Positions 16,301 through 59,014 of a stretch of DNA of 64,000 nucleotides are shown here, piece by piece. Under the pieces are notes generated by a model. The model was not told the DNA's origin. It saw only the letters and a program-made list of their open reading frames with translations, and made no database searches. Each line of letters starts with the position of its first letter. Position 1 is the stretch's first letter. A program made the translations under genes and the position numbers. This DNA is from Haliotis cracherodii (lineage: Eukaryota): the NCBI RefSeq assembly GCF_022045235.1, contig NW_027266268.1:4278001-4342000 (forward strand). Reading direction: 5' to 3'.

Positions 16301-19300
16301 CAGGTCATCAACATATGTCACAGACTAATGAATTAGATGGAGAGTAAGAACACAAGACAGGGAACAAACTCTATTCATAGACAGGCAAACACACTGGCCA
16401 TTGGGCTCTCCACCACTTCAACCAATGCCTTGTTATATCTGCTGGTTACAAGCAACAATATATTTACAGGTACTATCTTGTAACATTGGTTCGATGGATA
16501 GTAATTCTATAGGGCTGTTTACCCGCAGTTCTATCTGTTCCTCATTTTCTTTGCTTTTCAAGGCAGTGTACTCCTTCTCCAACCTGAAAACAAAGACAAA
16601 CATAGTATAACAAAGAAAATAACATAGAATAACATAACTTCTTGAATCCATGGAAATATCAACATCAAAACAAATACTGCAGCCGAAATATTTCCCCATT
16701 TCAAAATGCAGTTTTCGAAGCATGAAAGACAAAGAGTCCTTGTCATCACCTCAATGCTACAAATTTCCATTGTATTATGGGCCGGTGGCTGAAGTACCGA
16801 ATAAATTTGTCAGTCTGTATATTCTACAAAATATTCAGGTATGTACACTTTGCAACTCATTGATACAGCAGACTCACTAGAATTATAATAGTTGCCATGG
16901 TTTCGGAATACCAAGGACCCATTTTGGATGAAGTGACTTTTCTTCAGTGTTAAACATGTTAAAAGTCTTGAAGTGCAAGCCACTTAACAAATTTAACAGC
17001 AACTAAAATGTCCACTGTGTGTCTATGGTGACGAATTAAGTTATCAGACATGTTCCATCAGACACATACCCTTGAATTAAACACTCTCTTGGCTTAAAAT
17101 CTCCCAAATCTTGCTTATTCTACATGGAAGAAACTAATCTTGATAAACAAGTCAGGGAAGTGAAAATCAACTATGTACCTGAACCAGAAGCGATTCATGT
17201 TTCAAATTGATCTGAATTATACTGTCAAACAAGATCGTGAACTAAGAACTAAGTTGGAGCATAAAACAATGTCACAGTCAACCCAATGTGATAGATGGGG
17301 CTTGAGACCAACAGTATCACAGCCATCAGGTTCACTGTCCTCATACATAGGGAACACTCTCTGAAAGCACTGTGCCCCCTATAAGACTTAGTACAGAAAC
17401 AACATACTTAACCCTAATTAAAACCCTGATCTACAGGTGTCACTTGGGAATCTGCTAATGCTTTGTTCTCAAGCACCCAAGCTAAACCTGCGACAAATGT
17501 CATTAAGGAGTACTACTCTGTAGGCACAGGTAGCTGTATTCCTTAGGTAGTACTTATCTAATTAGACATGATAGACAGAGGCTGTAATTAAAGACTGGGG
17601 ATTAGTAAAGATAACCGCCAGGTCTAGTTAGGAGGTGAATGTTTGGGTTATCTCTTTTGGGGTTATGGTATTGTCTGTAAACAAGGGACATCAGCGACAA
17701 TCAGGTGTAATGACAAAATGAGGTGTACCCTCAAACCAATTTCTGGTACAATTAAGCTGTATTGGGTATAATCTCTTTTCCCCCACTTACTAATACAATG
17801 GTGGCACAGGGGTGCCATGGGCTTTGTTAGAGGTAATTCTATTTTTTTTCTTTTCACAACATATTTTTTTCCAGGACATCCAGCAAACAATTATTGCTTC
17901 TAGAACAAATATTTTTTCAGCAAAATTACAAACTACATGGACACATTCAATTGAATTTTAAAATACATTTAAGACATATGATTTACTAGATCTTATGATG
18001 ACACAGTGTCCGTGGGTGTTAGGCAATTCATGTAATGTTGAAATATTTATGAGTGAAATGACATCAAGATGATTTATAGAAATATCTCTGCACTTTCTTA
18101 GTTTCAGGTCACCGAATCCTTTATAAATTCAACAGTGTTTGAAGAATATCATATTGTATTAATAAGTGAATTTGCTAGAGACAATTGACATAAGGGCATT
18201 GTGCATGATAACATTAACATTTTAATGGACATTCTAATTATTACTCAATTAGAACAAAACACTCTTAATGCCATTTTGACTGATAGTCTATGTGCTAGAA
18301 AATGAAACCCATTTTCATAAATCTTGGGACCCCTGAAAGATTCAGTTTTAACACTAGGTCTATGAGAAAGTCCCCATTATTGTTTTCCTTAATTTTGAAC
18401 TTTGCTCATCATTAGCATGAAAAGTAAATGGAAGATGAAACTACAGAGACTTACAGAGTCTAACAGTACTGTTGTCAGCTCAATACCATAATCTGTACAA
18501 GAGTCCAACAGGTGTAGTCAAATTTCTTTTGGTCTAATCTGAACTAATCAAAATCTATACATGAACATGAAAATCTACTGGAAATGATGTCAAGTGACAA
18601 ATTCTTGCCAGAATAATTATGTGTTAGCAGAGACATTAACAGTGCTAGGCACAGTGTATCTCCTCCCTCATAAAGAGTTTATAATATGCATTATGTGTCT
18701 CTTTAACACTGACATATGCACTTCCAATTTATGTCAAGTTGAGCGTATATAAAGCAGGCATGTCACAATACAGTACATAGCGCAATACTTCATATGTGCC
18801 CCTTTTACATGAATTTCATCATCAGGGTTAGAACTCAACTCGGAAGCTTTACTAGCCCGGGGAAAGACAAAATGCACTTGTAATGTTAACACAATGTGGA
18901 AACTTGGAAGTTTGTTCTAGCCCACAGACATTTGTAGAAGCCCTGGGCTAGCGGGCTAGCGTTAAATTCTAACCCTGATCAAGTACCAATTGCTGTCAAA
19001 TCAACACAAGGTTAATTAACCAGTTTGTGTTACATGTCTGGTTAATCTGGTCCTGTTCTAAGTCTTTAGAACTGATACATATAAGAGAGAGAATTTAAGA
19101 ATGTCCACTTCTTTATTATGAGGAACAGGGGCGGTCGCGTAGCCTAGTGGTTAAAGCGTTCGCTCGTTACACTGAAGACCTGGGTTCGATTCCGACATGG
19201 GAACAATGTGTGAACCCCATTTCTGGTGTCCCCGCTGTGAAGCGGCATAAAACCATACTCACTCACTACTATGAGGAACACGTTTTTGAGCATGTGCTTA

Positions 19301-22300: not shown

Positions 22301-25300
22301 ATCCTTTCAAGTCCATATATTGCTCTGAACCTTTAGCTTCAGTCTTACCAGTATCTACGGTGTCAACAATCAACAGATTTCTCATTATGAACTTTTAAAA
22401 TGTACTGACAGCACTGTAAAGAGGAATGTGTTAATTTGGCTGGGCATTGGAAGTCATGTTTGAAATTACGCAAATTCAGATTTTTTTTATCCTTTCTTGA
22501 AATATATTCTTTCTATCATAATACTGTATATTAATTTGTATTACCTGATATGTTTCACACCTGTTGATCGGGAGATCTTTAAAGGATTTTAGTCCTATTT
22601 TATATTCATTTGAAAAGAATCAATGTGTTTCTGTCTTCTCTACATACATGAATAGAATGACAGTTTGTAACAGTAACCTTGCCTCACATTCACAGCGAAG
22701 TCCTATACCTTGCAATATATTTCCTGAAGTCTTAGGTAAACAGGGTAATAGTCGATACTTGTCAGCACAAGTAGTGATACTCAGAACTAGATCTTTACTT
22801 GGAAAAAACACTTCCAAAACTAACAATTAACGTCAATCCAGACATCCATTATATTAAGACAAATATTGACTTCTCATTTCCTGGTGAGATAAAGCTTGTG
22901 AAAAACACTTAACTTGAGTGCCGGGTCTCAACATTCCTAAATGAAGTGAAATTAACAAATATGGAAACACAAGACAGGAATAAAGGAACAACAATCTGTC
23001 AATGCCAGTACACACTATGTTTCAATTGCAAGGAAGTATCAGATGACTTGAACTTCTTGAATATTATATATGTGCCTTCATGAGTCAGTCTTCCCTAACC
23101 ACAAAACAAACGTAGATGATCAGGTTATGAGATTAAAGCTTTAATCAAATTAAACAAGAGCTATCCTATCGAATTCAAACTGAGATGCAATCCCTGCGTG
23201 ACTGTGGCCTTATTAAACTTTAAACTGCTGTGAAGCAGCATGAGGGTAAGCCATAAACACCCCCAGTTGGGCCACAAGGCCACACTGCTGACAGCCCTAG
23301 GCAGTCTGCCTTCCTAAGACTTCATGCTTAGACTCTCATCACAAGGTTGAGGTATCACGCCTCAATGAACACGTTCAACTCCTATCCACAGTCTATAGAG
23401 AGTGACTTTTGGTTGTTTCCCTTAACCTTGCATTTTGAAACCCTACTGAGCAAGCCCCAAGCCTTTGGTTTTGCACAAAAGGTGTTTATAGTACAAATTT
23501 CTAAACTTGCCCTTCATGTACAGATGAAGATGGTTATAGCAATGTTGAAAAACAATTAATGCAACCCTGTTGATCAAGTGCTGTCCCTTTTGTTTAGCCT
23601 ACAAAATTCCCCCTCACAACTGTAGAGAACTAGAAGGTATTTTGTATCATTGTTGAAAAATAATTAATGCACCAATAGGACTCCTTGTCATGCATAATCC
23701 TATCTGAAGGAAGTTGTGATGTGCTTTTCCTGTTGATAGACATATTAATATTCATAATCTCTTTCTTATGAATGAAGTGAAACAAGATTAATTCTTGAAG
23801 CATGCATGTGTCCTGACTTGGATAAAACCACAGTCATAATTGAAGAACCACATTTATTACAAACTCGCTTGGTGAGTGAGTGAGCAATACTTACGCGACT
23901 CAGTTAGACTGATATACTATTTTGTAAAAATGAATCTCTTTCTTTAAAAGCCCACATCAGCACTAGAATATGTCAGTTAGACAGATATACTATTTTGCAA
24001 AGATGATATATCTCTTGTGAACAGCCCATCACATCTACACTAGAATATAGACCATGTACATCTTAATCTTACTAAAATCATATTGTCAGAATGCTTCGTT
24101 TGGCTGATGTGACCTCCTGTGAAGGTGTCCTCAGATCTTCATTGAGAGAGGCATCGTATCAGAGTAAAAGATCTTGTATTAAAGGGATTGTACACATCTA
24201 TACTGTAAAACTGAATTATATACATGTATTATACAAAATATACTATGCATGCTAGTCCTACAACTTAATTATTAAATTGTATGTGTTGAAAGTACTCATA
24301 ATATTCTTTCAGTTTCCTCCAAAGTATTTTGTGTTGTACTCAGTTATCAAAGTAGAAAAAAATTATGTTTGCCTGATTGACTTCTATTCTCAAAGTGAAA
24401 TACACATCCTAAATACCTATTGCAGAATGCTGAACCTGTCTTAAAACGCTCCAAGTTGGACACTCAATACAGACCTAAACCTAACATTGGTATCCTAATG
24501 AGGTGCTGGACATTTCTTTCATAAATCCTTTACAAGGATGTGTTTAGTTGCACAGGTACACTTCAAAGCAAGGAGGTTTCACTATAAATCTCCGAACCAC
24601 TTGGCTACATGAATGTGGTCAGGCCGGACACAGGTTCACATTCCGCACTGACCAGTGAGTCCTGGCCCTGTGCTGGGGACCTGCAGATGTCAGCAGATGA
24701 CAGCAGCTGTCTCAGGCTGTCTCTGTACATGGATCTCATGTCTCAAATGCTAAAGACCATGAAGTGGAGGAATGACGTGACATGAGGTGAAGTGGGGTTT
24801 TATGGTGCATTCAAAATTATTGCACTTACAAAGTGACATGCATACACATGTGTGTATATGTGTGTCCTGTTCAAAAGTTGATGCTTTTACTTGTCCGGAC
24901 TAATGCCAGATTTGTAACGCTAGCCACTGGGATACTACCATGCCACAGTTTAACATGGATATCCAACTCAGCACAGTATATATACTCCGAGCAGACCAGT
25001 CCTTGTTTCATACCCTTATGCTTAGTGTCAGGTAGGGTAACAACTGGTCTGTCATAGAGACCCTGAAACAAATATACAGCGCTAGAAATTGGCCCCTAGT
25101 CCTGTAGTCCTTGCCAAACTGTCCAATAGTTAAGGTATCATAAGGACTAGTAGACATTTGCCATTTTTAAGGGTTTTGCTATATGTTATCATTGTAAGGA
25201 CTAGTGGACTAAAAATGTTAGTTTCTACCACTGATATATCTAAAAGAGACCATGCAAGACTCTAATAGTGAGCAAGTCTAGATTTTCTAGTGGTTTTTTT

Positions 25301-28300
25301 ATCTGCTAAAGTCTAAAGGATACACATAGCAGATATTATATTATGGACAGAATTATGAAATATATGCTCCACACCTTCACTCAAAAAAATTCATTTCTGA
25401 ATGTTTTCAGGAAAGCTAGATTTATATTTCACCTTTCAGTTTTAGGGATGAAACATGTGTGAATTTTGACCACAACAGCAACCTTATTTTCACTACAGGA
25501 AAATCCAACCAGTGGTTCAAAATGGTCACGTGAACAGTTTATCAGAGTTGAGATATAAAATAAGGTCAGTGAATTAAGTTGCGTTGACATGGTAATACCT
25601 GAGTCCAGCCACCTGATCTCTGTCAACAAGACAGGTGGACTGACAACAGGTCTCATGTTGCCAGTACGTGGGTGGGTCACCTACACTGGTAGGTAAGGGC
25701 AGTATCACCTTGCTCTGGGTGGCTTGCCTCACATATTAAGATGGCCATGACATATATGTTATATATAATTGTCTTATTTATTCAAATATTTCGAATTGGG
25801 AAGGGATAGTTCATAGTTCTTTAATATTGTGGATGGTTGCTTGACAGTTTAAGCATCTGTTCAGATAAGCATTCATTTTTTTAGATTATTATTTGTTTTT
25901 TCAAGCTGTGTGTATTATTTTATACCACAGTGAGATATTTTTAGGTCTCGAAATTGATCCATGCCCAGGTAGATCTATGGTTGATAGTTTGAGCAAAGAT
26001 CTGAGATGTTCATACAGACAATCAGCAAGCCAGATAACAAATTGTAACCACCAGATCCTCCAGATCCTCACTTTAGTCAGCTCTCTAGAAAAGAATCGGG
26101 GTACTCAGGACATATCCAACACCTGAATCACTATATAAAAATAATCTTAATCTGCTGATGGACTTTTTGAGACAATGTAATTAACACAATCTGCATGATC
26201 TAAACTATTAGTCTAAATACCAGGTATAGCAAATGTTTGTTAGGCAAGTTATTTTAATTTGATATGAATGGCCTTTATAAAAAATGGCAATTACAAGTTG
26301 TGATAAGGCAGGTTTTATATTAACTTTTCTTTTTTGCTAAGTTTCAAAGATTTCTAAGATTTCAATATACTTATCTTGTACTGTTCAACATTAAAACATG
26401 AAACTATGAATCATGAATCATCCATGAATCAGATGACTTTCATTCCTTCAAACCTGTCTCACATATCTTAACCCCTTCATCTCACAATCTTTGTAATATC
26501 ATGACACCTTTCATTGATAAAACTTGTTATCACTGAACCCACTGTCCCCCTAGGCTGGCTGGCTGGCAATCACTCACTCACCCCCTTGTTAATCCATCCA
26601 CCTACCTTCTGTTGTGCTGCCTGGGTCACAACAAGAAGAACTATGCCTTCCCCAGCTGACAGACACTGACTCCTTCCCCACCCCCTCCCTTCTGTTACCA
26701 CTACAGGAGCCATATCTGAACCAGCAGACAGACACTGACTCCCTCCCCACCCCCTCCCTTCTGTTACCACTACAGGAGCCATATCTGAACCAGCTGGCAG
26801 ACACTGACTCCCCCACCCTTAAATGTGCTGCCTGGCTCTTTCGCCTTTAACGTAGGTTCAAACACAACAGCAGATACCTTCACGTGAAACTAGATTCCAT
26901 CACATTATGTACATGCAATTAAAATCACACTAGTGTATTTTTCCAGGCTTCAAGTTCTAATCTGTAAGGCTATCTGGACATCAAAAACTGTAAACTCAAC
27001 ATCAGTCATTGAAGAAATAAAGGAAACTGAGTCTCCCTACAATTTCTTATCAGGCCAGGACCAGCAGTCAGCAGCAGTATTGGATGCTGTGTGAATAGTG
27101 ATCTGATTGGAGATAGAATTGTCTTACTTTGAACAGTTAGAACTAGGGTGCAATCTACCGGTACAAATGTCTTTGCAACTGAACTCCCAACCCCACAAGT
27201 CAGCTTTTGTGACAAGCATTAGGTATGGCAATGTCTGAAATTAAGCATGAAAGTCAAGGGGACTTGTCATAACCCTAATGTTACAGCCTGCGACCGTCTC
27301 CACAAGTCCAAAGCCTCTGTCTAGTAAAATATCGGTAAAGATAATTGTGACTTGTTTGTGGAATTGAATTCTATACGTAAATTAAAATGTCCCAGTCCCT
27401 CCACCATTATTATTTTCCCTTCTGCCCAACTCTTCCTGTAACACAAAAGTCCTAAATAAAGCAAGGGCAGCCTATGTTCCGTTGTGACTATGATAAAGAC
27501 TTACTAGTAACACAGTAATTATTTCTTTTCACTCATCTGGTGCAGGTTTTAGTGTCAAATATTTGCAATCGTGAGTTCCATGAACTTTATACAATGCACA
27601 TGATGTTCTGTTATAGGACACCTCAGGTGATTGTCTTTTTCATGTCCTCTTGTCACTACAACCACAAGCTTCAAGAAGGAGACAATTGCCCAAATGCATA
27701 TTTTATCAGTTATCTCACTGGGTCTTCTTTTCAATTTAAAAGGAGATATTTGTTTCAATCAAAATTATTTATTTTCAGAATTTTCAGAAACTAAGCGTTA
27801 GTCTAAGACTGATGTTAAAAGTTAAAACTTGGATGTTTTCTGGATTACAGTTGAAAACCTCAATTACCCGAAGACCCCCCTTTATCTTGAACATTTTATT
27901 TGGTAGCATTCTCCTAAGACTCCCAAAAGGGTTGGGAAGATATTTTCCTGCTCTCCCAAGCCAGGTCCTGTAGCAGGGTATCCCATGTTCAGATTGTAAT
28001 GGCTGCATTGTGTAATCAACTGTTGCCTGGAGCTAGGAGAGGAAGATGAAAGTCCAGCAGGGAGGAGTCAGGAATGACTGCCATCCATCACACTGCACAA
28101 CAAGTGCCCTTCACAGGGAAATGGGACCTAAATATCCCTGACCAGGGCTTACAATGGAAACTGTCACACCCTGAATAAGAACAACAAATCAATGAACCTA
28201 TTCCACTGAGCTTGATACTAATACATGTACATATATATCACCATTGTTACAAACATAACTGTCAAATTTCATTAAAAGAATAAAATTTAATATCAAGTTT

Positions 28301-31300: not shown

Positions 31301-32749
31301 TCATGAAATAAATATATTCCACGGTCATGGTGCAGGACTATGCTACTCCCAGTGTTCCAAATTAAGCATGAAAGCCGAGAGGTCCTTGTCACAAGCGTAA
31401 TGTTAAAATGTAGAGATTTAGGGGGTCTCTAGATTCAAATACCACAGTAGAAGACCTGAAGTATTCCAGGACACCCCATTCATTTCGACACTGTACTCCC
31501 CTATTGCTAACAATTATCATGTTAGAGCCCTTTTGGAAATAATAACAACAACAATAATAAAAGTAAAAAAATAATCAATTCATATGGCGCTGTACTCCAT
31601 GCATAAGCATGCTCTAAGCGCTTAGACATTTATTACCCTGGTCAATGGATCAGTGTGCACTCAACAATCATTCTCAGCTCCCTGGGAGTATACAACCCAA
31701 GCATCATTTCCTGATAGTTTTTTTGTCCATAAACAAAGGAATCTTTACACTATGTCTGAGTCACATCATCTACATGACAGAATACTTAATTGATAAATGT
31801 GCATTGCCTTCCAAAAGTGGCAGGAGATTATTGGGTCATTTGCGTCAGCTCTGCAAGAACATATCTAGTGCAGAAAGAAATTATATACTGCATATTGCCA
31901 ATCACTTACTTTTTCATTTTCTTGGAACTATATCGGACTTGATATGCTGTTTTGAGAAGGAGCTCAGTGTCATTTTCATATTTTGCGCGAACATCTTTTT
32001 GAAAGTACTGGAAAGAAAAATATAATCACATCATTCACTACATTGTAGCATGTAGAAACCAATGCCACTGTCAACCTGATACGGACAATAGTTCAGTGAC
32101 AACTTCATTGATATACTCTCAATAATAAGCTACTTCTCTCCCTACTCACGGACAGGAAATAGCCAGCTTCCTGTTGCCTGTAGAGTTGATCAGGGAAATA
32201 TTGAGCACTCTTCAACATCACTGTGACTTATATCGATGATATTCCACAGGCACAGTGTGATAAGTTTAATGCTGCTTGGAACAGCATTTCACATGTTATG
32301 TCAGCTTATTGTAGATGGGAAGCGTTGTTGTTGTTTGTTGGTTTGTTGTTTAACGCTGTGCTCAGCAATAATCCAGCTCTATAACAGTGGTCTGTAAATA
32401 ATCATGTCTGGACCAGACAATCCAGTGATTGACATCATGAGCATCGATCTACGCAGTTGGGAAACGATGACATGCATCAACCAAATCATTGAGCTTGACC
32501 ACCCAATCCCGTTTGTCGCCTCTTACGACAAACTTAGTCGCCTTTTACGGTAAGCATGGGTTGAAAAGCTTTAAGTGACACAGGTCAAAGATGTTAACTA
32601 CTATGGTGAAACAGGGATGGAGCTGAAAAAGCAGTGATCATAATCATAGAGATTTAAGAACTCAAGCCAATGATCACTGGATCCTGGCATATCTAAGGGG
32701 TGTCACTCTGCAAACTGTGACTCCTCAGACCACACCATGCCACCTAAGA

Positions 32750-32780
<31 letters not shown>

Positions 32781-35700
32781 ATGAATAGCAGTAAGATTAC
32801 CTTAAGCATGCCCTCCATGTCGAGAGACATCAGGTCCTCGTGACTAGTCTGTAGAATGGCCATCCCCACTCGGAATATCATCTCCATCCCCTGCACACAG
32901 AAGGCAAATGAGTTCAGTCCATAATGTGGGCTTTCCAGATTAATGGGGCTTTCAGTGAATATACATCAGTTTCCACCCACATAATCAATGTTTGAAATTA
33001 AGCAGGAAAGTCCAGGTGCCCTTGTTATAACCCTAATGTTCAAAGTTAAGATTTAGGGGTTCCTTAGATTTAAACACCATAGAAGACCTCAAGGACACCA
33101 GCACCCACTGCATAAAGTGTGTAATCAGTAATTTAATCAAAATTGTAAAAGAGTACATTCATAGTAAACCATACACTTGTCGTAACCCTTCACAATCACT
33201 ATCTCTTTGATGCAAAAGACAAGTTTAGAAAACATAAACATTTTAAACCAAAGGAGGTAATTCACAGGAACCACTAGACATAAGTAAATATGGTTTCATT
33301 GTGCATTCATCTTCCCTTGCTTCTATCTAAATCAAACTTGAAAAAAATATCAGGAAAGAATAGATCCTAGATGCTTTTAGCACTGCATATGAAATGACAT
33401 TTCCCATGAGGTGCAATGGATTTGGATTATACTACATCTTTCCGTTTTGGCAGAAATGATTCTCATTTAGGACAATGGACTTTAGGACAATGGATGCATG
33501 TATTAGCTGACTCTTATTCAGTGATGTAAGAATTTTCAGTTTTCCCCCCCAAGAAAACAAAAAAACAAAAACAATTATCTCCCAGAGATGCCAAGCCAAA
33601 TTTGAGACAAATAGGAGAATCTTAGATACTTTGGATACCCTTGATCAACAAAAAAAAATAGTTGTCATCATTGGCATGATTGACTGAATTCCTCAAAAAT
33701 ACATCATCTTCAACACTACATAAACCAAATTCCTAAAACTATGTAAACATGACAAGATAAATATATATGTCAATACCTTGTATAATTTACATACATCACA
33801 CACTAGAATGAACATAATCAGTTTTGACAAATGTTTCATAGAACTAGATTACACATAGTCATATCAACAAGCTGTTCATGGTTTTTTTAAATCATGCTTT
33901 TTACATTCGTTACAACCACTGTGATAGTGAAATCAGTGTCTAATATAAATCACTGGTGCAACGTTTCGCCAAAATTATCAGTATATTTCCTTTGACCTTA
34001 TTGGCTGAAATATTGTGCAGATATCGTAATGATTCCATCAAAATGTCAATGATCTGCATCTCTGGTTGCTGTGTACTGGTGTGTGAGCCAAGAGCTACTT
34101 CACCAAGTGGGCTGATGTTTTGTGCTCACCTCTGATATGAATATATCCATGATACGGCAGGCAAGAGACAGTGGAAGTGACGTGGTAAAGAGCGTCAGGA
34201 ACCACGAGGATGCGTACATGGAGGTGTGGAAGTTCTGAGTCTGAAAGTGCAGGTACAAGTCCGGCAGGAGTTCCTGGAACAATGTATAATCACAAGTCAG
34301 CAAACAACACGCATGTTGAAATTTGCAGCACACTTAACAGTTGCCACTGATCATCTGCAACTGCAGAAATTGTTTATATACAGACTGGATATATAGTAAT
34401 ATAACTTTATCTCTGGGACTAGATGTTTGTCTGTAAGCCATACAGCAGCATGCAGTGTGTGACTGACCTGGATGAGGCACTCCAGCTTGTACATGCACAG
34501 CCCCAGTTCCGCCATGCTGGGCTTGAACATCTCCCTCATGCGGAACTCCTGCATCAGGCGGACTAGGACAGCAAATGCTTCCTCCTCTGGCATCTGGGGA
34601 CACAAACATAGTTTCAGAACACCATATGTGAAAGTGGACAGCAGCATGTGTATTTGTTGGCTTAGCTGATTTGGGCAGGGGAATATGGGCCTTTCATGAA
34701 CATTACAGTGTTTGACACTGACCAGAATTTGCCAGTGGTCCAAAGGACCAGCACATGGAAAAATCTACTGCTCCTATTGAATCTCTACTGGCCACAATGG
34801 TGATGACCAAAAAAGGTCTTAAATTGCAGATACTTTATCATGTTCATACAAGAAGTGAGTGTGCACAAATAGAATGAGAAACCTTTATACCACACAGGGT
34901 TGTTTGGTATAAACAAGTCTGTTTAGGTTGTAGGTTTTGCTTAAGAGCTTAGAGTCAGTCTGTCACCAATTTCAAAAGTCATGTAAACTTATTTAAACTT
35001 CCTTTGTTTCGTCCCCAAAATAACACTAAATCACCAGACCATGCTGACCAGCATCTATTTAATTTTACTGGTCCTTTTGGAAATATACCATACTAGACAT
35101 GGAACAGCAAACCTGTGTTGATATCAAACACTGCATTATGGTCATGAATATCAAATGCATGTAACATTCAATACTGGGCTATTGCAACATTCAATAACTT
35201 CATACAAATATTTCCTGTCCACTGTATTTGCCCCCTTTATCCTTAGGTTGAATTCTGTTGCATTTTAACTTGCAAAACACAATAAAAGCCACAAAAGGCA
35301 TCCTTATTACATTATCTACAGAATGAAGTGCAGGTCTGTTAAGAAGGAAGGCATCTATTCACATTTCTATAACACAACATTTCACACTGACATAATGATT
35401 AACGCATGACCATTTGAAACCCCTGATTGTAGAACAGACAGACTCGCAAGCAAGAGTTTAAAATAACTAATCATTCAATGATACAGAGCATTCTTATACC
35501 TTTTGGCAAAATACAGGGTAGGCCCTTCCATAAACAGACATAAACGTTTTTGAATAACTTGAGTTTTGGGTTGAAGATGAAGATATCAGCTTACAGGACT
35601 GCATAGCATTGAGAATTGAGACATTAACCATTGCGATGAACAGAGCTGAGTAATGCTGTAGACTTGTCAGTACACCAAATGACAGCTGCTGCTAGTAACA

Positions 35701-38700
35701 TGAGTATAGCAGGGCAAGTTTACTCAACACCTGGTGCCTGATTCCAGCTATACATCATGGTGGTCAGTAAATAGTCAAGTGAAGACCAGACAAACCAGAA
35801 ACTGATATTATGAGCACCACCCTATGCCATCAGGGCACAATGACACTCAAATTACCTGGCCTCACCCACCAATCCACAACCAACCCACTTTGGTATTCCA
35901 ACCAAGAATGTCACTGCAATGAATCTTTATATTAAACACATACTTTGTGTGAGAGAGACAGGAGCTTGAATACCACTATAGCATCAATGCTTAAATTTAC
36001 CTGCATAAGTAGAAGTCCCACGATGAAGCCGCTGCCCTGACAGTACCCAACCTCCCGGTCGTGGAGAGAGTACGCCTGCAACACAAAACTAGGATCAGAG
36101 GAAGCAGGACTACCAGCAACAGTGCAGTCAACTAAAGCCAAGTACACCAATGCCATCAAGCATCAACAGTGCAGTCAACTAAAGCCAGGTACACCAATGC
36201 CATCAAGCATCAACAGTGCAGTCAACTAATGCCATGTACACCAATGCCATCAAGCATCAACAGTCCAGTCAACTAAAGCCAGGTACACCAATGCCATCAA
36301 GCATCAACAGTGCAGTCAACTAAAGCCATGTACACCAATGCCATCAAGCAACAATAGTGCAGCAATTGATACCATGAGCAACATCCCACTGGCAGGGGTA
36401 TGATGGCATGTTAATGCAACTGATCCATCTCGTCACCTAATACGACAAGAATAGGGGACCTATTCTAGCCCGGAACCCCCACAGAGTGTGAGTGATTTAG
36501 CATCCAGCAAATTATTTGACATCAGTCAAATGAATATAAGAATACATACAGGTAAATTAATGACAACTGAGAAAATTCTCTAAGATTCATGAGCCAATGA
36601 ATCATGACCTTATTCATGTGTTGTATTTTATCATTGAGGTAACAATACTATAGTCCTATCAATCATAGCATCAACATTTAATGAATCATTACAGTTTTAG
36701 TTTGTCATAGAAATAGTTCACAGAAATTTACTACCAGTCATTATACTGTCATGCACATAACAAATATGTCCATCTTCTCACCTTCATGACATTGAAAAGA
36801 CTTTCTTGTCCTAATCCATCCTTCTCCTTGAAGAAATCGTGATCAGGGAAAGTCCTTGCAATATCTCGGCGAATAAGCTTCTCACACGGTGAGGTTTTCT
36901 TGAGATATTCTGCGTACAGCTGTTTGAACTGAGAGTCGTTCACACCCAGTAACAGCTGCCAGGCTAGACCACGGAAATGGTGAGGAATCCCTTTCCGAAC
37001 CAATTCCTGAGAAAGAAGAAACAAGTTCGTGAATGAAGTATGGTCTGTAAATCATTGAATCTGGACCAGATAAACCAACAGTTGAAATCTGGAGCTACAA
37101 TGCTTTACTTCATTTCCATGAATTTTACTGATATCATCTTGTTGCACATAATCAGAAGCCTGAAGCCTATTGTAGATGGGGATTTCAAAGTCAGATTGCA
37201 GAAATCAACCACCGACACACTGAACATTGAGTTCTGGTGATTAGAATATGTCAGTTATATGTAACATGTAATCTACAATTAATATAAATTGTAATGATTA
37301 AAACTGCCATACTTTTTGTGTTCCCCAGGACTTTCAATATAAATTATAGGCATCCATTCTCAGCTTGTATACATATATATTGTAATATTTTGTATCTGGT
37401 ACAACTCTTCAAGTCACACATTGTAACAACTTGATTTCCACATATCGGTAATCAGTTCTTCAAAAAAGCAGGATCAAGTCTGCCTCCATGAGGGAAAGTG
37501 GGAATAAATCATTACTTCCATGTTTACAGATACCTAAATGGTCGTGTGAAGTATCTTAAGAGTTATCTCCCCTTAGATCACTAGCCTATCAATACAACAC
37601 AATCTCATTAAAATCAGACCTTATAATCTGATACAATACCTCCCTGTATTAACATCTTGGGACACCTGCATAGACGGTTGCATCAGGTGAATCCTGAACG
37701 ATCTTTGACCACCAAATCTAAATGAAGCCTGCATGGGTTCTTGAGCCAAATAACCATCAGCTTTCAAAAACGACTCAGAATTATATTTTCCACCTCCAAT
37801 GTTCCACAGAAAACCACAGAGAACACAAATATTACTTTGATGGTACTTGCATTTGGGTGTACATATCCACAACAATATAATGAGGCTGTTATACTATCTT
37901 CTTTTAGAATTTGCCGTTTGAGTTCGTTTGTGAGATACAGAAATGCAGCTTTGCTGGTTTGAACACTCGTACTGAGAATTTAGATGCCTTTAGATGATAT
38001 ATTGATATATTGTGATACTTTTGAGTCAATATATATTCCTACTAAAATTTCCAATCAATGCCATCCCCAGCAGAGATATGATTGAACATCAATGTGATTA
38101 TGTGATTGCTATACAAGTAATACATTATGAAGATCATGACACAAATCCTATGACAAGATAAACCAAATCTTAATATTTGAGTATTCACGAACAACTAAAG
38201 CATATTACTAGATGCAAGATTTTTCTTACGAGATTTTCCCAGGAGTTAATACATGTTTCAAGAGGAACCCTATAATTCAAGGCTTCTTCAAGCCTGTATG
38301 AATCCTGTCACCACAGGAAAGGACGGCCCTGAAAGTGTTCCTACCTTGATGTAGCCTGTTTTCTTCTTGATACTGTCCCACTCGTTGACGAGACGCCCCC
38401 ATGTCTCCCATAAGTTTTCAGATGGATTGGCAGCTGAAATACAATAAATGAAATAGAACTCTAGCTGCATAATATATGGTCACAGCCTGTTCAATATGAA
38501 CCCTGATACCCAAGTTTACTGTTAATATTTGGTTATATTGATAACCCAAAAATATGCTTTTGATAATGATGGACCACATGTTTCAAATCTTACTGAGCAA
38601 ACATAATCTAATGAGGGCTATGAAACATCCGTGTTGTACTTTTCTCTTTGTCAATAAGTAAAAGAGTATGCGCTTTCTTAAACCTTTTTCAGCTATATTC

Positions 38701-44700: not shown

Positions 44701-47700
44701 GATAATTTCAGATGCTAAAATGCATGACCCAATTCAAAACCTTTTCCATCAAAGAACCTTTTCACCAAAACTTGTCATGACTTAAGGTTGCAGGTACAGC
44801 ATACGTACACATTGATGGGCAAAAATCGGTGTTTTCTATCCATCAAATGTTCCAGATACATAGCAAAATGATTCAGTTTGTATGAAACCTATACTGAAAC
44901 TAAACAAGTTTGGTTGCTAGATTGAAATGTGGTTTTCTTGGAGGTAATTAATATATATAGTGAGTTAGCTGAAGTCGTTGTAGATCTGAGAAATCTGCCC
45001 AGTGATAAAGGATTTATGTGTCTTGCCAGTGAGCAAGAAAGTCTTTCCTTTGTTTATTTTGCTTTATCATTATATTAAGATAGTCATCGAGTCACACTAA
45101 AAGACTGGAAGACCTGAAGTAACACATGTCCTAAATATGTCACATTGAAATTACAAGCCTGCCCACATCAGCAGTGCAATGTTTGTTTACACATATCTTC
45201 CAAAACAAATCAGATACTTGATTAAATTTTGTACAGTGTTTTTGTTACATAAAGCTATATCCATACTGTTTCTGAAATGGTCACTCGACGGCAGCCCTTC
45301 AACACATGCTTAAATACTGTGTTGCTTTCCTTGATCCAAAGACTCATGTCAGGAGTTAAAGTTTTGACTGCAGTCTCCATCTCTAAGTACCATCCATTCT
45401 CAGTAGCTGTGACATATTTAACATCAGCCACTTTTCTAACATCCATATAAAAGGGTTAGATGAAGGTGGCATCAGTGATGTTGTTTGTTTGTTTGTTTGT
45501 TGTTAAAGGACGCACTCAGCAATATTCCAGCTCTGTAAATAATCGGGTTGGCTCAGACAATCCAGTGACTGGCATCATCAGTGATCATGAACATCGATCT
45601 ACACAATTGGGATACGATGACATATGTATCAGCTAAGTCGGACAGCCTGACCACCCGATCTCGTTGGCCGCCTCTTACGACAAGCATAGTCACCCGTTAC
45701 GGCAAATAATGGGTTGCTGAAGACCTATTCTAACCGTGATCTTCACGGGTACATCAATGATGTGATACACTTGTCCATCATATGTCTGATCGTCGTCAGC
45801 ACTTCACAGGTTTCCCCTCCACACGTCTCTATCCCCTGTGAATACGAACAGCCACTACCAAAGTTACAATTTTTGATAAGCGAAACAAGATAAGGCCTGG
45901 TTCTCACTTGCAAGTGACTTGAAGCCATCTATTCTATACACTGCTTGATTGTCATGTGATGGAAGGTTTCAGTGTTCATATATGGGTTAAGGCTCATTTG
46001 ACTTCCATGCTTCATTTTACTGTATTTCCAGGTGATGGAGGATTGTTGTGTATACAAACTTGTGAAGTATTGATGATGATGTCTGACTTAATTTGAAACA
46101 TTTGGTCAATAAATGCAATATAGTTGGGAAGCAATCATTCAAACTTTCTTGAATAATTACCGGCTGAGTGAAAATAACGGCTGAAAAACTTAGAACCCAT
46201 TCATAAGGTTGTTATTTGCCAACAAGAAAGCATATACTTAAGAAAATGGTGAAAAGTATATACATATGTTGATAGAGCCAATGACGCTTGGTATCTTGGG
46301 GCAATCCTTCATAACAAGCAAGGGGTATATGCTTTATCCTACATGATCAGTGACAAAAATCTCATGCTTTGAAATATCCTATCACTAAGTGCTACAGCAA
46401 GAAGAGACCATTGATAAATATGTTTATGACCAATACTGTTCATGAACGATTGAACATGAAAGCAAAAAAACGAAATCATAACATACCTCATTCTTGCAAA
46501 CAACCATACGTGCTGTATGATATGTAAATAGATTTGACAACTGGCTCCAACATGACACATGACACATGAGTTCTGCATGCTTCAATGCCATGAATATTGT
46601 AAAGATGAATACATAAAGATAGATAACCAAATGTCAGATCACATAATGACAATTCTCAGATTAATTACAGTCTGTGCCTAAACCTTCTGTAAATTCACTA
46701 TCAGGCAATAGCATTATCTTATCTATTTTATCTCCAAATCCAACATGATGCCCAGCATCAATTTCAACAGATATTACTCTTTCACAAAATCAGCTTCCTG
46801 TATTAAAATGAAACTTTAATTACCCAGAAATTATTTATTATTTTTACAAGTCTGCAAAAATGATCTGCTTGTCATTTATCTAATACAGTGTTGGGGGGTC
46901 CGGGGGTCCTGGAGGTCTTAACCCATATCTACACATAATGATCTGGGGATCCCCCACATCTTGAACATTAGGGTTAAGATAAGGACCCCTTGACTTGCAT
47001 GCTTAATTTCTAACATTGTAATATGTAGGAAAAGTGATGGTCAAGAAGGAACTGTCACAAGTCTCACACTAGCAGGTTTATGCTAATTTCGAACAGCCAG
47101 AAGAAACAATACTAGTCTAGGATTGGGTAAAGACACAGACTGATTGATGAACAGTAATACCTCACACAGAACATGCAGTTGTACAGCGAGAGACTGCTGC
47201 ATCACACTCACCTGCCTCCTCCTCGTAGGAGACTTGAGCGCTGTAGTGGCTGTTTGAGGAAGTGGTAGAGATCACACTAGAGCCAGAGCCTTTCCTTGAA
47301 TGCCCAGGGGTGGGGGAGCGAGCTACCAGGGCGTTGCAAGACTTCTCATCAGCTTCCAGTTTCCTGCAACATCAGTTCTAGCCAATTTATTATCTTAAGA
47401 AGTGAGGCCACAGTTTATAAAGTTTTCATGACTTTTGAATAATTTTACTTGAGAGGTGGTTAAGTATTGTAATTGCATCCAGAGTGACACAGTTTGTTAA
47501 TAGATTTAGCATTACACAGCTGCCGGTGGTCAAATGCAGTAAACTGACTCATGCTTTCAGAAGAGAGTGTCACACTATGTTGTAGTGTGTCTGTGAAAAC
47601 AAATACCACAAACTCATTACTGAGCAAATACCACCATCAACAGATACACTGAGGCCCCCAGATAGAGTGTAACCTTAATGAGTTGATTGGTTTGAACTCA

Positions 47701-51382: not shown

Positions 51383-54300
51383 GGAAACCAATAGGTAGAC
51401 TCCTCTTTAATGCGATTTCAGCCATTTACTGTCATTTATGATCCTAAAAATGAAAATATGTGAGCATTAATATAATAACAAGAATTTATCTAAACAGGTC
51501 AAATGTTCATTGCAAGATTGTAATTTATGCCAATCACACTGCATGTGTGACCACATTCACCCATTTTGCCAAGAAACAGTTTCAGCACAGTATGCTATGG
51601 GCCAAATGTCTTGTCTTTTAAGGTTTAGGAGATTTCACCAGTCCTTCCTAAATTTTATTAGCCTCAGACTAACATGTTAATGTCTAACACTATTTTATCC
51701 CTTTAAATGACTCTTATTTCTTCGAACACTGCATGTTATAAATAGTATTCTCCTTCCCAGCTCCTGCCAGTTGCATAGTTTGTTGGCATCCATACAAACT
51801 AATAAATGTCATTAAGAGTTCATGGAGGAAGGGAGGTAACTCTAACTGTTAATTCTCCAGTACTGTTTACTGATGCTGAAAGGAACACTATGTTCTACAC
51901 ATTTGTTTATGTTATATATCTGTACACCGTGTTCTAACTTACAAGAGTGCTGGGGTCGTTGAGGTTTGCTGCTTAGTATTTGAATCTAGTGATCCCTAAA
52001 TGTTCAACATTCAACATTCAACATTAGGGTAATGACAGGGATCCCTTGAATTTCATTCTTAATTTCAAACACTGTGTACACATGACAAAACATTTCATGC
52101 ACACCTTCAGATACTCAATTTGGCAAATGTCAGGCCTTTTCAGCATATTCAAGCTAAATTACAACTTAGGCCCAAACATGAAACCTCTCTCTGCATACAC
52201 AACTGGTGCCTGGTCTTGTAAGCTGGCTATTCCAACATCCCCACAGACAAGAGTACTAATACTAATAGGATCCATTCTGCCCTTAGTTAGATTCCTACTT
52301 CAGACAAGCTTCCAACTTACCAATACATCCTGATGGTGTATCAAGGACATTTCTTTTTCCATAAAGTAGTTGCTATGATACATAATGCTGACTTCCCATT
52401 ACTATGATTACTTAACACTGAATGACACTGCAAACATTTAGCTAGATTGTGTGGTCATGGTGGTAAGGTCATTTCCTTCATCAAGATAATGTTCAAGATA
52501 ATCTATACCATGTATTCTTGGTACAACTGTGTCAGCCTATCAGTGCAATGATGAAACTGTATGTCCTTGGAATGCACTGTAACAGGTCATTGAACTTCCT
52601 ATGATTATCAATCACCATTACCCAGTTACTTGAGAGTCTGATCAGATTAATCAGACCATATCAGCTACCTTTCCAGTGAAGGAAACTAAACAGGGACCTT
52701 GAGGTTTACTGCTAAGGTATTTGCATCTAGGAACCCCTAAATCTTTTACTGTTAACAAGAATATGACAAGAACTCTTTGTGATAACGAACATGAATATGA
52801 AAGCATTACCTATCATGCCTATAGATGTGACATCCCTGGAAGAGGTACGATGAATGTCCTTTTGGGAAATGTTAAACTTTAAAGTTAAGAAAAACTATAA
52901 AATATTGCTTTGGAAATGATCAAACATATTCAAATGGCTGACAACTAGCCTCTTTTCTTTCTTACAGTAATCATGGTGATACACTTGCAAGTTTTGGACT
53001 TCTGGCATGGTCAAATATACCAATATGGTAGATATTTGTTTGTAATGTTTAATGTACCAGTACATACATCTCCTATGAAAATCAGTTTCTTGGGACAAAT
53101 ATTTGTTCAAATATAGGAAAAAGACCTCATGAAAAAATATAATATCAGCCTTTTCCACTTTGATATAAATTATAGAGAGATAATCTCTAACTCACTATCG
53201 ATCAATAATCAATAAATATTGGAAAAGTAACTTCACACAATTATGCGGGAAAGTCTCAAAAGAGATCAACATATTTCTCACCACTGGTGAGTGACACATT
53301 TATACATAGATTGTGTTTTGTACAATGTTGTAGATATTTGAGATATAACAAAAAAAGTTGCTTTCTGTCATCGACAATTGACATTATTAATAATAACAAT
53401 TTTATCACAATAGTTTATGTAAGTTATTATCGATGACAACAATTTCATATCAATAATCGTTAATAGTTTTTCCCATCAATGATAATTCCGATTTTTAATC
53501 AGTTTAGCCAGCCCTAATAATTTCTAACCCTGATACTGTAATCATGTTAATTATCCAGATCCTGTGGGCCAAAGAACGTCCTTATCCTACTGTTTCCTTT
53601 GGATAAACATTGTATCATTTTACCACTGATACTGCATGTGGCAGCAAGGTCATATCATACGTTCACCTCTGAACCATCTTTCAACTGCAGACTATTATAT
53701 AGATGCATTTGTCTGTGAGATGTCAACATGTTGCAAGTAGGGCTGTGTAATGGGAAAAAAAAAAAATCGATATTGCAAAATACTGCAATACAAGTACTGT
53801 ATAACATTATTTGTGAATGAATTTCAGTGTAGATGTTTGGTTAATTGATACAAATAATAAGGAAACTTATTATGTATTATTTACCCAATTTACTGGAACA
53901 CAGAAAATATATTGCAATGTGTATTGTTAAAAAGCCTACTTCAGTATACAGGTAATACCATGCAGTCCAAGTTGAAAGCAGGTTTAATCAATAATGTGAT
54001 GATCATAGGTAAAACAGGTACAATCATTGATAATGAAATACAAAATAAAATGAATAATTGCTGTCAGTTTATCCAATTTCCAGTGAATAATTTAATATCC
54101 ACTGTGTCACCTGATTTACAGAATGTCAGTGATCAGAGTAGAGATAGTAAGTGCGTGCACAGATACATTATACAATGACCGTACTATCAAGCTCTCAACC
54201 CTCCTCTGACATGCTACAATACAACCTACTGGTTAGCTGTGAGCAGCAGTATTACAGAGACCTACATCCCATCAGTCTGCCATGTTAGCAGAGCTCCAGA

Positions 54301-55099
54301 TGAGCTGCGTATTTGTGTAAAATACACACAATAAATCACAATTACCCAATTAATGTTGAGTTGTTTGCATACAAATATGCATGAACATTTCTAAAATGCA
54401 ACAGTATTACAAGACTCTGGGTGTAAAACGATACACCGATGCATCATGAGTTTTCATACGACAACACAATACATAATACGCTTTTTTCTGTATCGATAAA
54501 AGACAATATACTTGCAAAAATAACTTACTTACTTCTCTGACTGCAGCCCTCTCATTTCTGTCAGTCAAATATCACAAAATGTATTGTAATTAGTGTTTCA
54601 AGGTAACTACAACCAATACCTACATCAAACATGTCTACATGCTTTTCCCTTGGATCCTGCTCTGAAATATTCATCGTGAAGAAGATTCCACACGACTTGA
54701 CATGAATAACCGTATCACAATAGGCATCGTATGGAGACCTTGCTGTATTATTTCACCCTTCAACAGTCTGCATAGAAATACCCATGAGACTGGACCCAAA
54801 GGAGTAAAAATATACTAAATACCCAAAGAAAACAATCAATATCCAATGTGAAAGATAACTTGTGAGTAAATACTCAATGACTCAAAACATCTCCAGCCTG
54901 TCAACAATATTACAGAGGCCGTATCCCACCAGTCTGCCATACTAGTCAACAAAGAAACTTCATCTCACATCAAGGCAAGCTTTCTGATGGCTTATATTGT
55001 GTGCATCAATCTGTGCAGTGATGAGCTAAGGTCCCTACTGTCCATGTCTTCAAAGTTGTCCACTACCATGCAAGAACTATCCATCGTCAGCAGACTCTT

Positions 55100-55220
55100 G
55101 CGTGGATAGAAGCTCTTGATATCAATAACTGGATTGTCTGATCCAGACTCGATTATTTACCGACTGCCGCCATATAGCTGGAACATTGCGGAGTGTGGCG
55201 TAAAACAACAAACAAACTCT
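55100..55220 (+). mobile_element. SINE-like family A, 5'-truncated, plus orientation
   Basis: GGATTGTCTGATCCAGACTCGATTATTTAC...GCTGGAACATTGCGGAGTGTGGCGTAAAACAACAAACAAAC. Confidence 0.8.
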
Positions 55221-56577
55221 AACCAACCAGACACCTGTGATCCACAGTTGTTCTACATTCTTTACATGACCATCATGTAGTACTGGGGACCTGTCCCTAC
55301 GATACAACCAAACAGGCAGCCTTCAAGTAGGGCTTTCCTCCTACCAACAATATTTTGAAAGAGTTTATATCAGGTTCCGGCTGTATTTTCAGAGAGGCTT
55401 CAAACTCTAGTTGAAGGGCTATCACTGAGCATAAGATGACTGCAAAGGTTCTGCACCACAATCAACCAACCCATCACAATTAACCTAATCATTATGCTCA
55501 AACCAACTGCACTGAAAACAAATACTTATGAGATGAATTTTAGAACAGCAGGACATAAATACTCTATTCCTAAAGCACATTACCCCAAGATTACAAAAAG
55601 ACAACAGCCAGAATTCCTGACAGAATGCCTGATAACATGCTAGTCCACACCTGCACCTCAAGCTATTGAAAACACATCATTAACTAGTATAGAAATTGGG
55701 GCCAGGTTCAAAGTAAAAGCCAAACTGCCTAGCTATCAGAATGTCAATGGAACTAGCAGAAATTCCTCTTTCATGGAGTTTACTTTTATGCTGCTAACTC
55801 ATTATCTCAATCAACACATTTGTAAAAAATCACTTCTCAACTACTTACTAATAGAATGCATGCTAATTTTCTGTACTTTCAGTTGCGCTGAGCTTTTGAG
55901 CTTACACTGTAAAGAGAGCCAGACCTAAAAATCAAGTATCAACACAATGGCAGTTTGTGCTTAGCAGGTAAATATTGCGAATGAAGTCTATTTCTTGAAG
56001 GCTTCCAAATACTTTGAAAAGGAAAGATTCAACAGCAATAAAATCTGTGTATTTAGATCCAGCCACATATTCAAAACAAACAGCCTTTGTTTACTGATTG
56101 TCGTTCATACCAGTATTTGTTTAAATTACAATTTTGAATTGTGCTTGAGATTTGCAGATCCTGGAGTTTTAAATCTTTAAACTAATCCTGGCTTGTTTTA
56201 AGTTCTTTACCCATTTAAGTTCAATACTGGACTTTGGTGGAAGGATTATCACAAACCGTCCTGAAATATTCTTTGGTGTGGCAGACTCCTACTTTACTTT
56301 TTATTCTTTAAATCAACATTATTATCGTGAGTAACTAGGGGGGAAACGATACAGCAAGACCACGATACGATATGTATCATGATACATAGGTCACAACATG
56401 ATACAAAGGGATGCAACTCTGCACAGAAAATGGCAGCACCCTAGACCATGGAACCACCCAGCAACCTTGTATATATATTACAAATAAAAAACTTTAAAAA
56501 GGCAGAGACATACATATATGTCTATGCTTTAGTCGTAGTATCTATGTGCTGAGGGCTCTTTATGCAATATACATTAC

Positions 56578-56747
56578 ATATGACCATGAAGTAAGACGAG
56601 TTCTATGCGTCACTTGCTTGATAAAGGTGTTAGGATCTACACCGAAACGTCGCACTAATTGTAATAAAGAAGTTGTTCATCCATAGAACTCGTCTTACTT
56701 CATCACACCAACTTCTAAATGCCACTCAAAGAAGATATGACCATGAA
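56578..56747 (+). mobile_element. Short insertion resembling a Penelope-like-element terminus with a hammerhead-like motif
   Basis: 13-bp direct repeat ATATGACCATGAA at 56578-56590 and 56735-56747; perfect 22-bp inverted repeat at 56586-56607 and 56682-56703; core CTTGATAAA-GGTGT..ACACC-GAAACGTC followed by AATAAA. Confidence 0.7.
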
Positions 56748-58847: not shown

Positions 58848-59014
58848 TGGAGTGAATGAGTTTGCTTTTACGCCGCTTTTAGCAATATTCCAGCAATATC
58901 ATGGCGGGGGACACCATAAATGGGCTTCACACATTGTACCCATGTCGGGATTCAATACCGGGTCTACAGCGTGACGAGCGAATGCTTTAACCACTTGGCT
59001 ACCCGACTGCCCTC
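58848..59014 (-). mobile_element. tRNA-derived SINE family B, full-length
   Basis: Reverse complement of the 19128 element with the complete tail; 9-bp TSD AATAAAGAC. Confidence 0.9.

Follow-up and report, generated by a model that had tools for sequence, protein, structure and literature searches.

Insertions of canonical Penelope-like elements (PLEs) are heavily truncated at the 5′ end, have an inverted and truncated copy at that same end, and carry a tail of 30–40 bp at one end (Craig et al., PMC8557442). In the rotifer element Pen2a, this tail measures 31 bp, the target-site duplication (TSD) 9–10 bp, and TATATATA stands 20 bp before an Inr-like TCACT (Arkhipova et al., PMC3846280); a start of this TATA/Inr type is not universal among PLEs, because Penelope of D. 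virilis uses a TATA-less internal promoter (Schostak et al., PMC2377424). Regarding the mechanism, the protein of the anole element introduces nicks into both strands of AT-rich DNA, and reverse transcription (RT) starts at two internal sites, the tail being the stretch between them (Frangieh et al., PMC11167929); the anole hammerhead ribozyme cuts only with the protein present, its cutting is dispensable for insertion in vitro, and the anole RNA-seq data described in that source show no ends at the cut site.

As for the ribozymes, Cervera and de la Pena described minimal hammerheads in which U3-A8 replaces C3-G8, with an extra nucleotide, G10.1-C11.1, and a palindromic 15.2-16.2 (PMC4209133); minimal forms were defined with relaxed descriptors, and cleavage of the U3-A8 ones in vitro is low and dimer-dependent, according to the same source. 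Dimer cleavage is also credited to Lunse et al. by a review (PMC6765202).

Layout of the insertion and its genomic context

The window, that is, the whole 64-kb stretch of abalone DNA that was analysed, contains a short insertion upstream of a host gene, with no second copy of the element inside the window. The features are the following:

3104–51382, minus strand: coding exons of the EVI5-like (Rab-GAP TBC) host gene, given as the best exon matches of the Haliotis asinina protein
56578–56590, plus strand: left TSD, 13 bp, or 11 bp without counting an AT absent from organism B; its basis includes the empty-site joint from 56577 to 56737
56586–56607, minus strand: short inverted copy of the pLTR 3′ end with the tail absent (reverse complement of 56682–56703), 17–22 nt, 56586–56590 being common to the TSD
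56608–56614, plus strand: inversion junction and start of the sense copy, with the Inr-like TCACT (a motif named in PMC3846280) at 56610–56614 and loose ends and joints at 56610–56613
56615–56654, plus strand: predicted minimal type I hammerhead, with stem I at 56615–56617/56652–56654, U3-A8 core at 56618–56624, and predicted cut after C56651
56663–56668, plus strand: AATAAA hexamer, its role as a poly(A) signal unsupported
56682–56703, plus strand: pLTR 3′ end up to the putative inner reverse-transcription start (56698–56703), with inversion joints at 56692–56702
56704–56734, plus strand: one-sided tail, 31 nt (36 nt counting from 56699), closed by the family-wide 3′ end at 56734
56735–56747, plus strand: right TSD

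The direct repeat ATATGACCATGAA occupies 56578–56590 and 56735–56747 with a spacing of 157, and it brackets the unit as the initial annotation had proposed. The insertion size of 157 bp given there holds as the net gain, which includes one TSD copy, whereas the inserted DNA itself is 144 bp (56591–56734). Taken alone, the TSD is weak, because about 0.5 such 13-mer direct pairs with a spacing of 50–300 are expected per random 64 kb; its value lies in bracketing the unit exactly. The inverted repeat had been described as perfect over 22 bp, and it is so (56586–56607 with 56682–56703, 100%), its first 5 nt (ATGAA) overlapping the left TSD. It is unique in the window among exact 22-nt pairs with arms within 200 nt, an exact 22-nt inverted repeat occurred in 0 of 30 first-order Markov sequences of 64 kb, and the long hairpin folds with a z of −4.9 on the plus strand and of −4.0 on the minus strand.

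The locus has the one-sided tail of 30–40 bp typical of PLE insertions (31–36 nt beyond the end of the inverted arm) and, adjoining its 5′ end, the inverted and 5′-truncated copy. The tail is A/C-rich (25 of 36 positions) and holds the only candidate start ATG of the sense part, at 56719, with a possible M-P-L-K-E start whose backing is one common synonymous variant only (56727 C>G). A stop-free frame from 56637 was rejected as coding, as it has three common non-synonymous variants and no ATG. The AATAAA hexamer had been taken for a poly(A) signal; it does not set the 3′ end, for there is no poly(A), and the copies of the family described below end 66 nt further on.

Regarding the host gene, EVI5 lies on the minus strand and its exons are mostly 90–98% identical to the Haliotis asinina protein, and one exon matches it at 100% identity along 95% of its length. 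The first matched codon is at 51382, which places the element about 5.2 kb upstream and, as stated in the initial annotation, antisense to the gene. An acceptor-like tract precedes the first EVI5 coding exon and, judging from this tract, the element may lie in an intron of the EVI5 5′-UTR.

Other repeats occur in the window. Just upstream of the element there is a multi-copy, short tandem-like stretch of the CATGATAC type (56328–56404, X18 depth about 6–18), followed by a multi-copy 40-bp piece (56406–56446, depth about 170–210) with consistent loose ends on both sides; from 56411 onward, these upstream repeats are present at the locus in organism B. A minisatellite with a 33-bp period and open frames on both strands lies within an EVI5 intron (11245–11724), and EVI5 introns also hold short tandem repeats at 36114–36362, 26652–26818 and 23900–24048, with periods of 47/94, 69 and 73 bp. 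A dispersed repeat family of 120–270 bp has at least 6 copies at 70–87% identity (5211–5449, 6078–6274, 15339–15547, 32326–32564, 45479–45750 and 55098–55217), another is found at 12756–12919, 19128–19240 and 58850–59012, and yet another at 27229–27282, 31350–31472, 32964–33104, 46961–47039 and 51947–52075.

A multi-copy family and an empty site in a related organism

Reads and contigs of four sequencing runs, out of 20 listed, were compared with the window at a likeness of at least 82%: X18, raw reads of organism A with 1938 Mb read; X1, contigs of organism A; X7, contigs of the related organism B; and X12. Figures on variants, joints and loose ends refer to the rows listed in the run tables.

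The X18 depth was 159, 239, 138 and 57 over four bins covering 56616–56743, and 0–3 on the unique flanks, so that the copy-number check suggested by the initial annotation returned a multi-copy family. The peak depth of about 239 translates into 148–234 copies for genome sizes of 1.2–1.9 Gb, the larger sizes being assumed; the H. asinina assembly is 1.14 Gb, and its repeat table gives 8250 Penelope fragments that amount to 1,021,439 bp, with a mean of 124 bp (PMC11393055). The copies end together at 56734, in 34 reads of X18, 44 contigs of X1 and 59 contigs of X7, and beyond this point they run, in these three runs, into AT-rich DNA that is mutually unlike; the common part of the family is 56610–56734. 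The left inverted arm is not amplified, with an X18 depth of about 21 in the bin 56584–56615 against the peak of 239, and at position 56609 there is A, not the G of the window, in 15 of 19 reads. Many other copies carry inversions of their own, with other inversion points: strand switches make up 9 of the 15 joint rows listed and fall at varied points, four of them having an end at 56692–56702. The earlier proposal of a non-autonomous element moving as a whole unit is likely wrong on these grounds, namely the extent of the family, the unamplified arm and the other inversion points.

Other copies extend beyond 56610 on the upstream side, where they have a motif in common (37 reads; 67, 107 and 32 contigs). 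In the loose ends of X18, TATATATA is found 22 nt before TCACT with an agreement of only 0.53, and the other three runs have a weaker, AT-rich version upstream of TCACT; depth upstream of 56610 cannot register, because the window is without that sequence. X12 was set aside as evidence on transcription, since its RNA origin is only guessed and the unique flank is covered as well.

As for the empty site, which had also been suggested as a check, it was found in organism B: in a 2345-bp contig of X7, whose depth of 13 is on a par with the unique flank, 56577 is directly followed by 56737 and the target is present in one copy. This contig spans 56411 to 57060, skipping 56578–56736, with at least 174 letters on each side. 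The skip is of 159 bases and not of 157, and the single target copy is one AT shorter than that of the window; the TSD is therefore 13 bp if organism A had the AT before the insertion, and 11 bp otherwise. Both insertion junctions are spanned by contigs of organism A (X1), and X18 depth is absent on the flank beside the left junction. An empty-site joint in X12 was not counted as bridging, having just 25 letters on one side. The empty site in organism B, together with the perfect arms, makes it likely that the insertion is young, in agreement with the age first assigned to it. The flanks also have small indels, 9 bases after 56519 in X1 (window 56520) and 7 bases after 56485 in X7, which amount to local polymorphism.

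The hammerhead motif in the abalone and in metagenome contigs

All the elements listed in the initial annotation for a hammerhead-like core, of minimal type I and with a palindromic ACGT, are present in the sequence. Stem I is formed by TGC (56615–56617) and GCA (56652–56654); the core TTGATAA (56618–56624) reads as U3 U4 G5 A6 U7 A8 A9, and it is followed by an extra A at 56625 and by stem II, GGTGT/ACACC (56626–56630/56639–56643); next come GAAA (56644–56647), which includes G12, A13 and A14, and CGTC (56648–56651), the palindrome ACGT being at 56647–56650. The motif has the 3-8 pair of a hammerhead core (U3-A8), G12-A13-A14, and a NUH site (GUC). The core had been called non-canonical, and it does depart from CUGAUGA, but it matches the published U3-A8 minimal variant (PMC4209133). 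A motif scan of the window gave 3 matches, and 56615–56654 alone has a U3-A8 or C3-G8 core with a NUH site. The proposed covariance-model check came out negative, as no Rfam hammerhead family matched the motif at E≤5 or E≤10; Rfam matches to snoRNA, sRNA and miRNA families were dismissed as chance-level. The folding energy of the hammerhead core alone is no better than that of shuffles (z 0.55).

The family variants listed inside the ribozyme are at 56625 (the extra nucleotide), 56634 and 56636 (loop II, unpaired), and 56654 (outer edge of stem I). The last one, A>T, is common (43 of 150 reads) and touches a stem I of only 3 bp; it may stem from the indel-rich neighbourhood. To cut after C56651, the predicted ribozyme would need either to dimerise or to be helped by protein. 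A dimer modelled with an intermolecular ACGU helix has −17.3 kcal/mol versus −17.8 kcal/mol for two monomers, and this energy model neither supports nor excludes dimer activity.

A hammerhead pattern scan of metagenome contigs returned eight loci (L001–L008). In four of them (L001, L003, L006 and L008) the motif is located 77–100 nt downstream of the end of a PLE-type ORF, and the others (L002, L007, L004 and L005) resemble the abalone insertion in being short stubs within unrelated DNA. The ORF of L003 has RVT_1 at an E of 1.3e-5 and 25.4 bits, under the cut-off of 29.6, and GIY-YIG at an E of 7.1e-5, above the cut-off; the L001 and L003 proteins are 32–33% identical to an Anolis PLE-type protein, which has a Pfam set as in other PLE proteins, while an identity of about 98% links L006 and L008 to L001 and L003. 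In L006 the order is ORF end, hammerhead and next ORF start, a pLTR-ORF-pLTR-like partial tandem seen only there, in an unrelated organism. In an alignment of seven sequences, from which L005 and L008 were omitted because they are cut by contig ends, 3 of 7 pairs have changes on both sides, a value reached in 6 of 500 shuffles; the changes belong to one lineage (L003/L004), and 4 of the 7 pairs are fixed by the search pattern.

Some further observations concern these contigs. Penelope/Poseidon-type ORFs of eukaryotic kind are found at L001:303–1547 and L003:1110–2405, and in L005 (30–1172) an intron-free Kelch-repeat gene adjoins the stub. The L002 and L007 contigs each have two PLE pLTR stubs 0.9 kb apart (L002:1176–1374 and 2149–2237; L007:1026–1238 and 2013–2101); in the second stub N7 is changed and stem II is collapsed, so that it is likely a decayed copy. 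At their ends the two contigs carry long direct repeats, of 123 and 285 nt, so each may represent a tandem or circular unit. L001, L002 and L007 depart from the element at one point, some 75 nt downstream of the hammerhead and inside an ORF start that L006 continues; this common departure point is a shared 3′ end like that at 56734 of the window.

The initial annotation had linked the insertion to PLEs, and both the published layout of PLE insertions and the motif downstream of PLE-type ORFs in four of the eight loci agree with this link. The partner with GIY-YIG and RT domains, whose search it had advised, did not turn up: there is no PLE ORF in the 64-kb window, and among the 137 PLE-like proteins listed there is neither a Haliotis-named protein nor an N-terminal match to the frames of the element. 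Because no abalone parent ORF was found, the PLE link rests on the architecture and on the motif common to unrelated organisms. Pattern scans of viral contigs gave 0 matches, whether to the general hammerhead pattern or to the family-specific stretch; the sole match in a prokaryotic genome was attributed to chance, being in GC-rich, coding-like DNA with no stem II.

Origin of the insertion and comparison with known systems

With a probability of about 0.88, the insertion is a dead-on-arrival, 5′-truncated copy of an endonuclease-bearing Penelope-like retrotransposon, of which only the pLTR end with the predicted hammerhead remains. The observations behind this reading are the insert with its TSD, the empty orthologous site, the multi-copy family with the shared 3′ end at 56734, the short inverted copy without the last 31–36 nt, and the hammerhead-form motif that PLE pLTRs have elsewhere. 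The element is thus likely a young PLE end and likely not a self-standing non-autonomous element.

The steps of the mechanism can be drawn from experiments in vitro with the anole element (PMC11167929). The GIY-YIG domain of the parent would nick both strands of the AT-rich target, about 13 nt apart. One nick would prime RT at the outer internal start (56734), with about 125 nt copied back to 56609, and the other would prime it at the inner start (56698–56703), with only 17–22 nt copied; at the inner start the common ATGAA would give 5 nt of pairing with the target, perhaps helping priming. The two cDNAs would then be joined head to head, and filling in of the staggered nick would produce the TSD; at the head-to-head junction, the last bases of the arm would also resemble the upstream sequence of the family. 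The sense cDNA likely stopped at the RNA 5′ end, because in the family TATATATA precedes, by 22 nt, the TCACT where the copy begins. Self-priming on an antisense template has been proposed as the source of the PLE inversion (PMC3846280), and it is an alternative route that fits less well, because there is no palindrome at the inversion junction. The lone copy is probably inert, because it is without TATA box and ORF.

Different origins have to be weighed against this one. A self-standing non-autonomous PLE derivative would be a unit of about 125 nt, from the TCACT start to the end of the tail; solo pLTRs with a retained TATA box would drive its transcription, and a PLE protein would copy it in trans. 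Such a derivative corresponds to the reading of the initial annotation, minus the exact inverted unit as the mobile element. The confinement of depth to 56610–56734 would suit it, but depth cannot extend upstream in a window without that sequence, and many reads and contigs do continue there with the common motif. Non-autonomous PLEs have been described in Chlamydomonas (PMC8557442), pLTRs act in trans (PMC3846280), solo stubs exist in L002/L007, L004 and L005, and the parent ORF is missing from the window and from the PLE-like proteins listed; however, an autonomous transcript would give an equal product, and we regard such a derivative as improbable.

A dispersed monomer of a non-LTR retrozyme, that is, of tandem 150–450-bp repeats with type I hammerheads that spread via circular RNA, is more remote. 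Type I hammerhead and TSD of more than 4 bp are found in metazoan retrozymes (PMC7229834), whose derivation from pLTRs has been argued (bioRxiv 10.64898/2026.07.22.740005), and the hammerhead sequence is seen again in one loose-end row before 56656, but this loose end is accounted for by the indel variants at 56653–56655. Moreover, the locus has a single unit with no tandem repeat, the hammerhead is of the minimal PLE form and not of the canonical form with a 6-bp stem I, the tail and the head-to-head inversion are PLE marks, and the insert neither begins nor ends at the cut site. The faintest chance goes to a MITE with the 22-bp arms as terminal inverted repeats and a hammerhead look-alike that arose inside by chance: a perfect inverted repeat, small size, TSD and multiple copies would fit, yet the reading is already largely refuted, given that the right arm lies inside the unit, 31 nt short of its end, the family does not share the left arm, inversion points vary among copies, and the motif recurs in PLE pLTRs.

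Returning to the truncated PLE copy, a thin lead concerns the 5′ ends of the family, as junctions in other copies cluster at the TATA/Inr-like start (56609–56613) and near the predicted cut (56651/56652). Positions 56610–56613 are joined to 56644–56659 in 5 of the 9 strand-switch rows listed, and an end at 56651 or 56652 is found in 4 of the 12 junction-table rows listed, the table giving no joint type; clipping artefacts are possible, for the window reference itself forces clipping at 56610, and the indels at 56653–56655 force it near 56655. We hold as tentative, and on balance unlikely, that the 5′ ends of the stubs record both real 5′ ends of PLE RNA, namely the transcription start (56609–56613, with the TATATATA/TCACT core promoter) and the ribozyme cut (56651/56652). 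If true, the stubs would be "strong-stop" cDNAs, with RT starting in the upstream pLTR and running off the RNA, and the genomic junctions would be a fossil record of the minimal PLE hammerhead cutting in vivo, the cut RNA being used as template. In the literature searched, which left subscription journals outside and is thus weak evidence, no paper was found that maps 5′ ends of PLE copies to the start or the cut site.

As a single locus, the insertion matters little, being one of some hundreds of related stubs, and stubs of this kind have been described from rotifers, flies, fish and lizards. The locus makes a clean and compact example, with TSD, empty site, tail, inversion and U3-A8 hammerhead in 157 bp, and it offers a presence/absence marker between two related organisms. 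To the known stubs it adds an example from a mollusc, complete with empty site, as well as a TATA/Inr pair at the 5′ boundary and a thin hint of cut-site junctions. The whole family could be used to test whether the hammerheads of PLEs cleave in vivo and by what route inverted ends form.

Among the systems described, the abalone insertion shares with the canonical EN+ element Pen2a_Av of Adineta vaga (PMC3846280; scheme in PMC8557442) the inverted copy of the pLTR end on the 5′ side, the one-sided 31-bp tail and a TSD of about 10 bp, as well as TATATATA followed 20–22 nt on by TCACT, the TATA part of the abalone family being seen only in reads of other copies. Unlike Pen2a_Av, the abalone stub has no ORF and no complete pLTR, its arm is 17–22 nt against 181 bp, and its TSD is 11–13 bp. 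With the Poseidon of Anolis carolinensis, PAc (PMC11167929), the likeness lies in two 3′ ends about 30–40 nt apart in an A/C-rich stretch, in AT-rich targets, and in a hammerhead upstream of the region where RT starts; the ORF of PAc starts at stem II, whereas the abalone stub is without an ATG there, its only candidate being in the tail. PAc is the source of the mechanism, which for the abalone stub is borrowed by analogy.

As for the ribozyme, the U3-A8 hammerheads of Schistosoma Cercyon, of the metazoan PLE type (PMC4209133), have the same U3-A8 pair, unpaired nucleotide between 9 and 10.1, G10.1-C11.1, palindromic ACGT replacing stem III, and short stem I; stem II is 7–8 bp in Schistosoma and 5 bp in the abalone, stem I is 4–5 and 3 bp, respectively, and the abalone motif is predicted only. 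Mollusc motifs may already stand in the supplements of PMC4209133. The metazoan non-LTR retrozymes (PMC7229834; bioRxiv 10.64898/2026.07.22.740005) are likewise small and non-coding, with a type I hammerhead and a TSD of more than 4 bp, but the abalone stub is not tandem, its hammerhead is minimal and not canonical, and it has a tail and an inversion (compared with PMC7229834). Finally, the mean length of the Penelope fragments of H. asinina, 124 bp (PMC11393055), matches the sense part of 125–127 nt found here.
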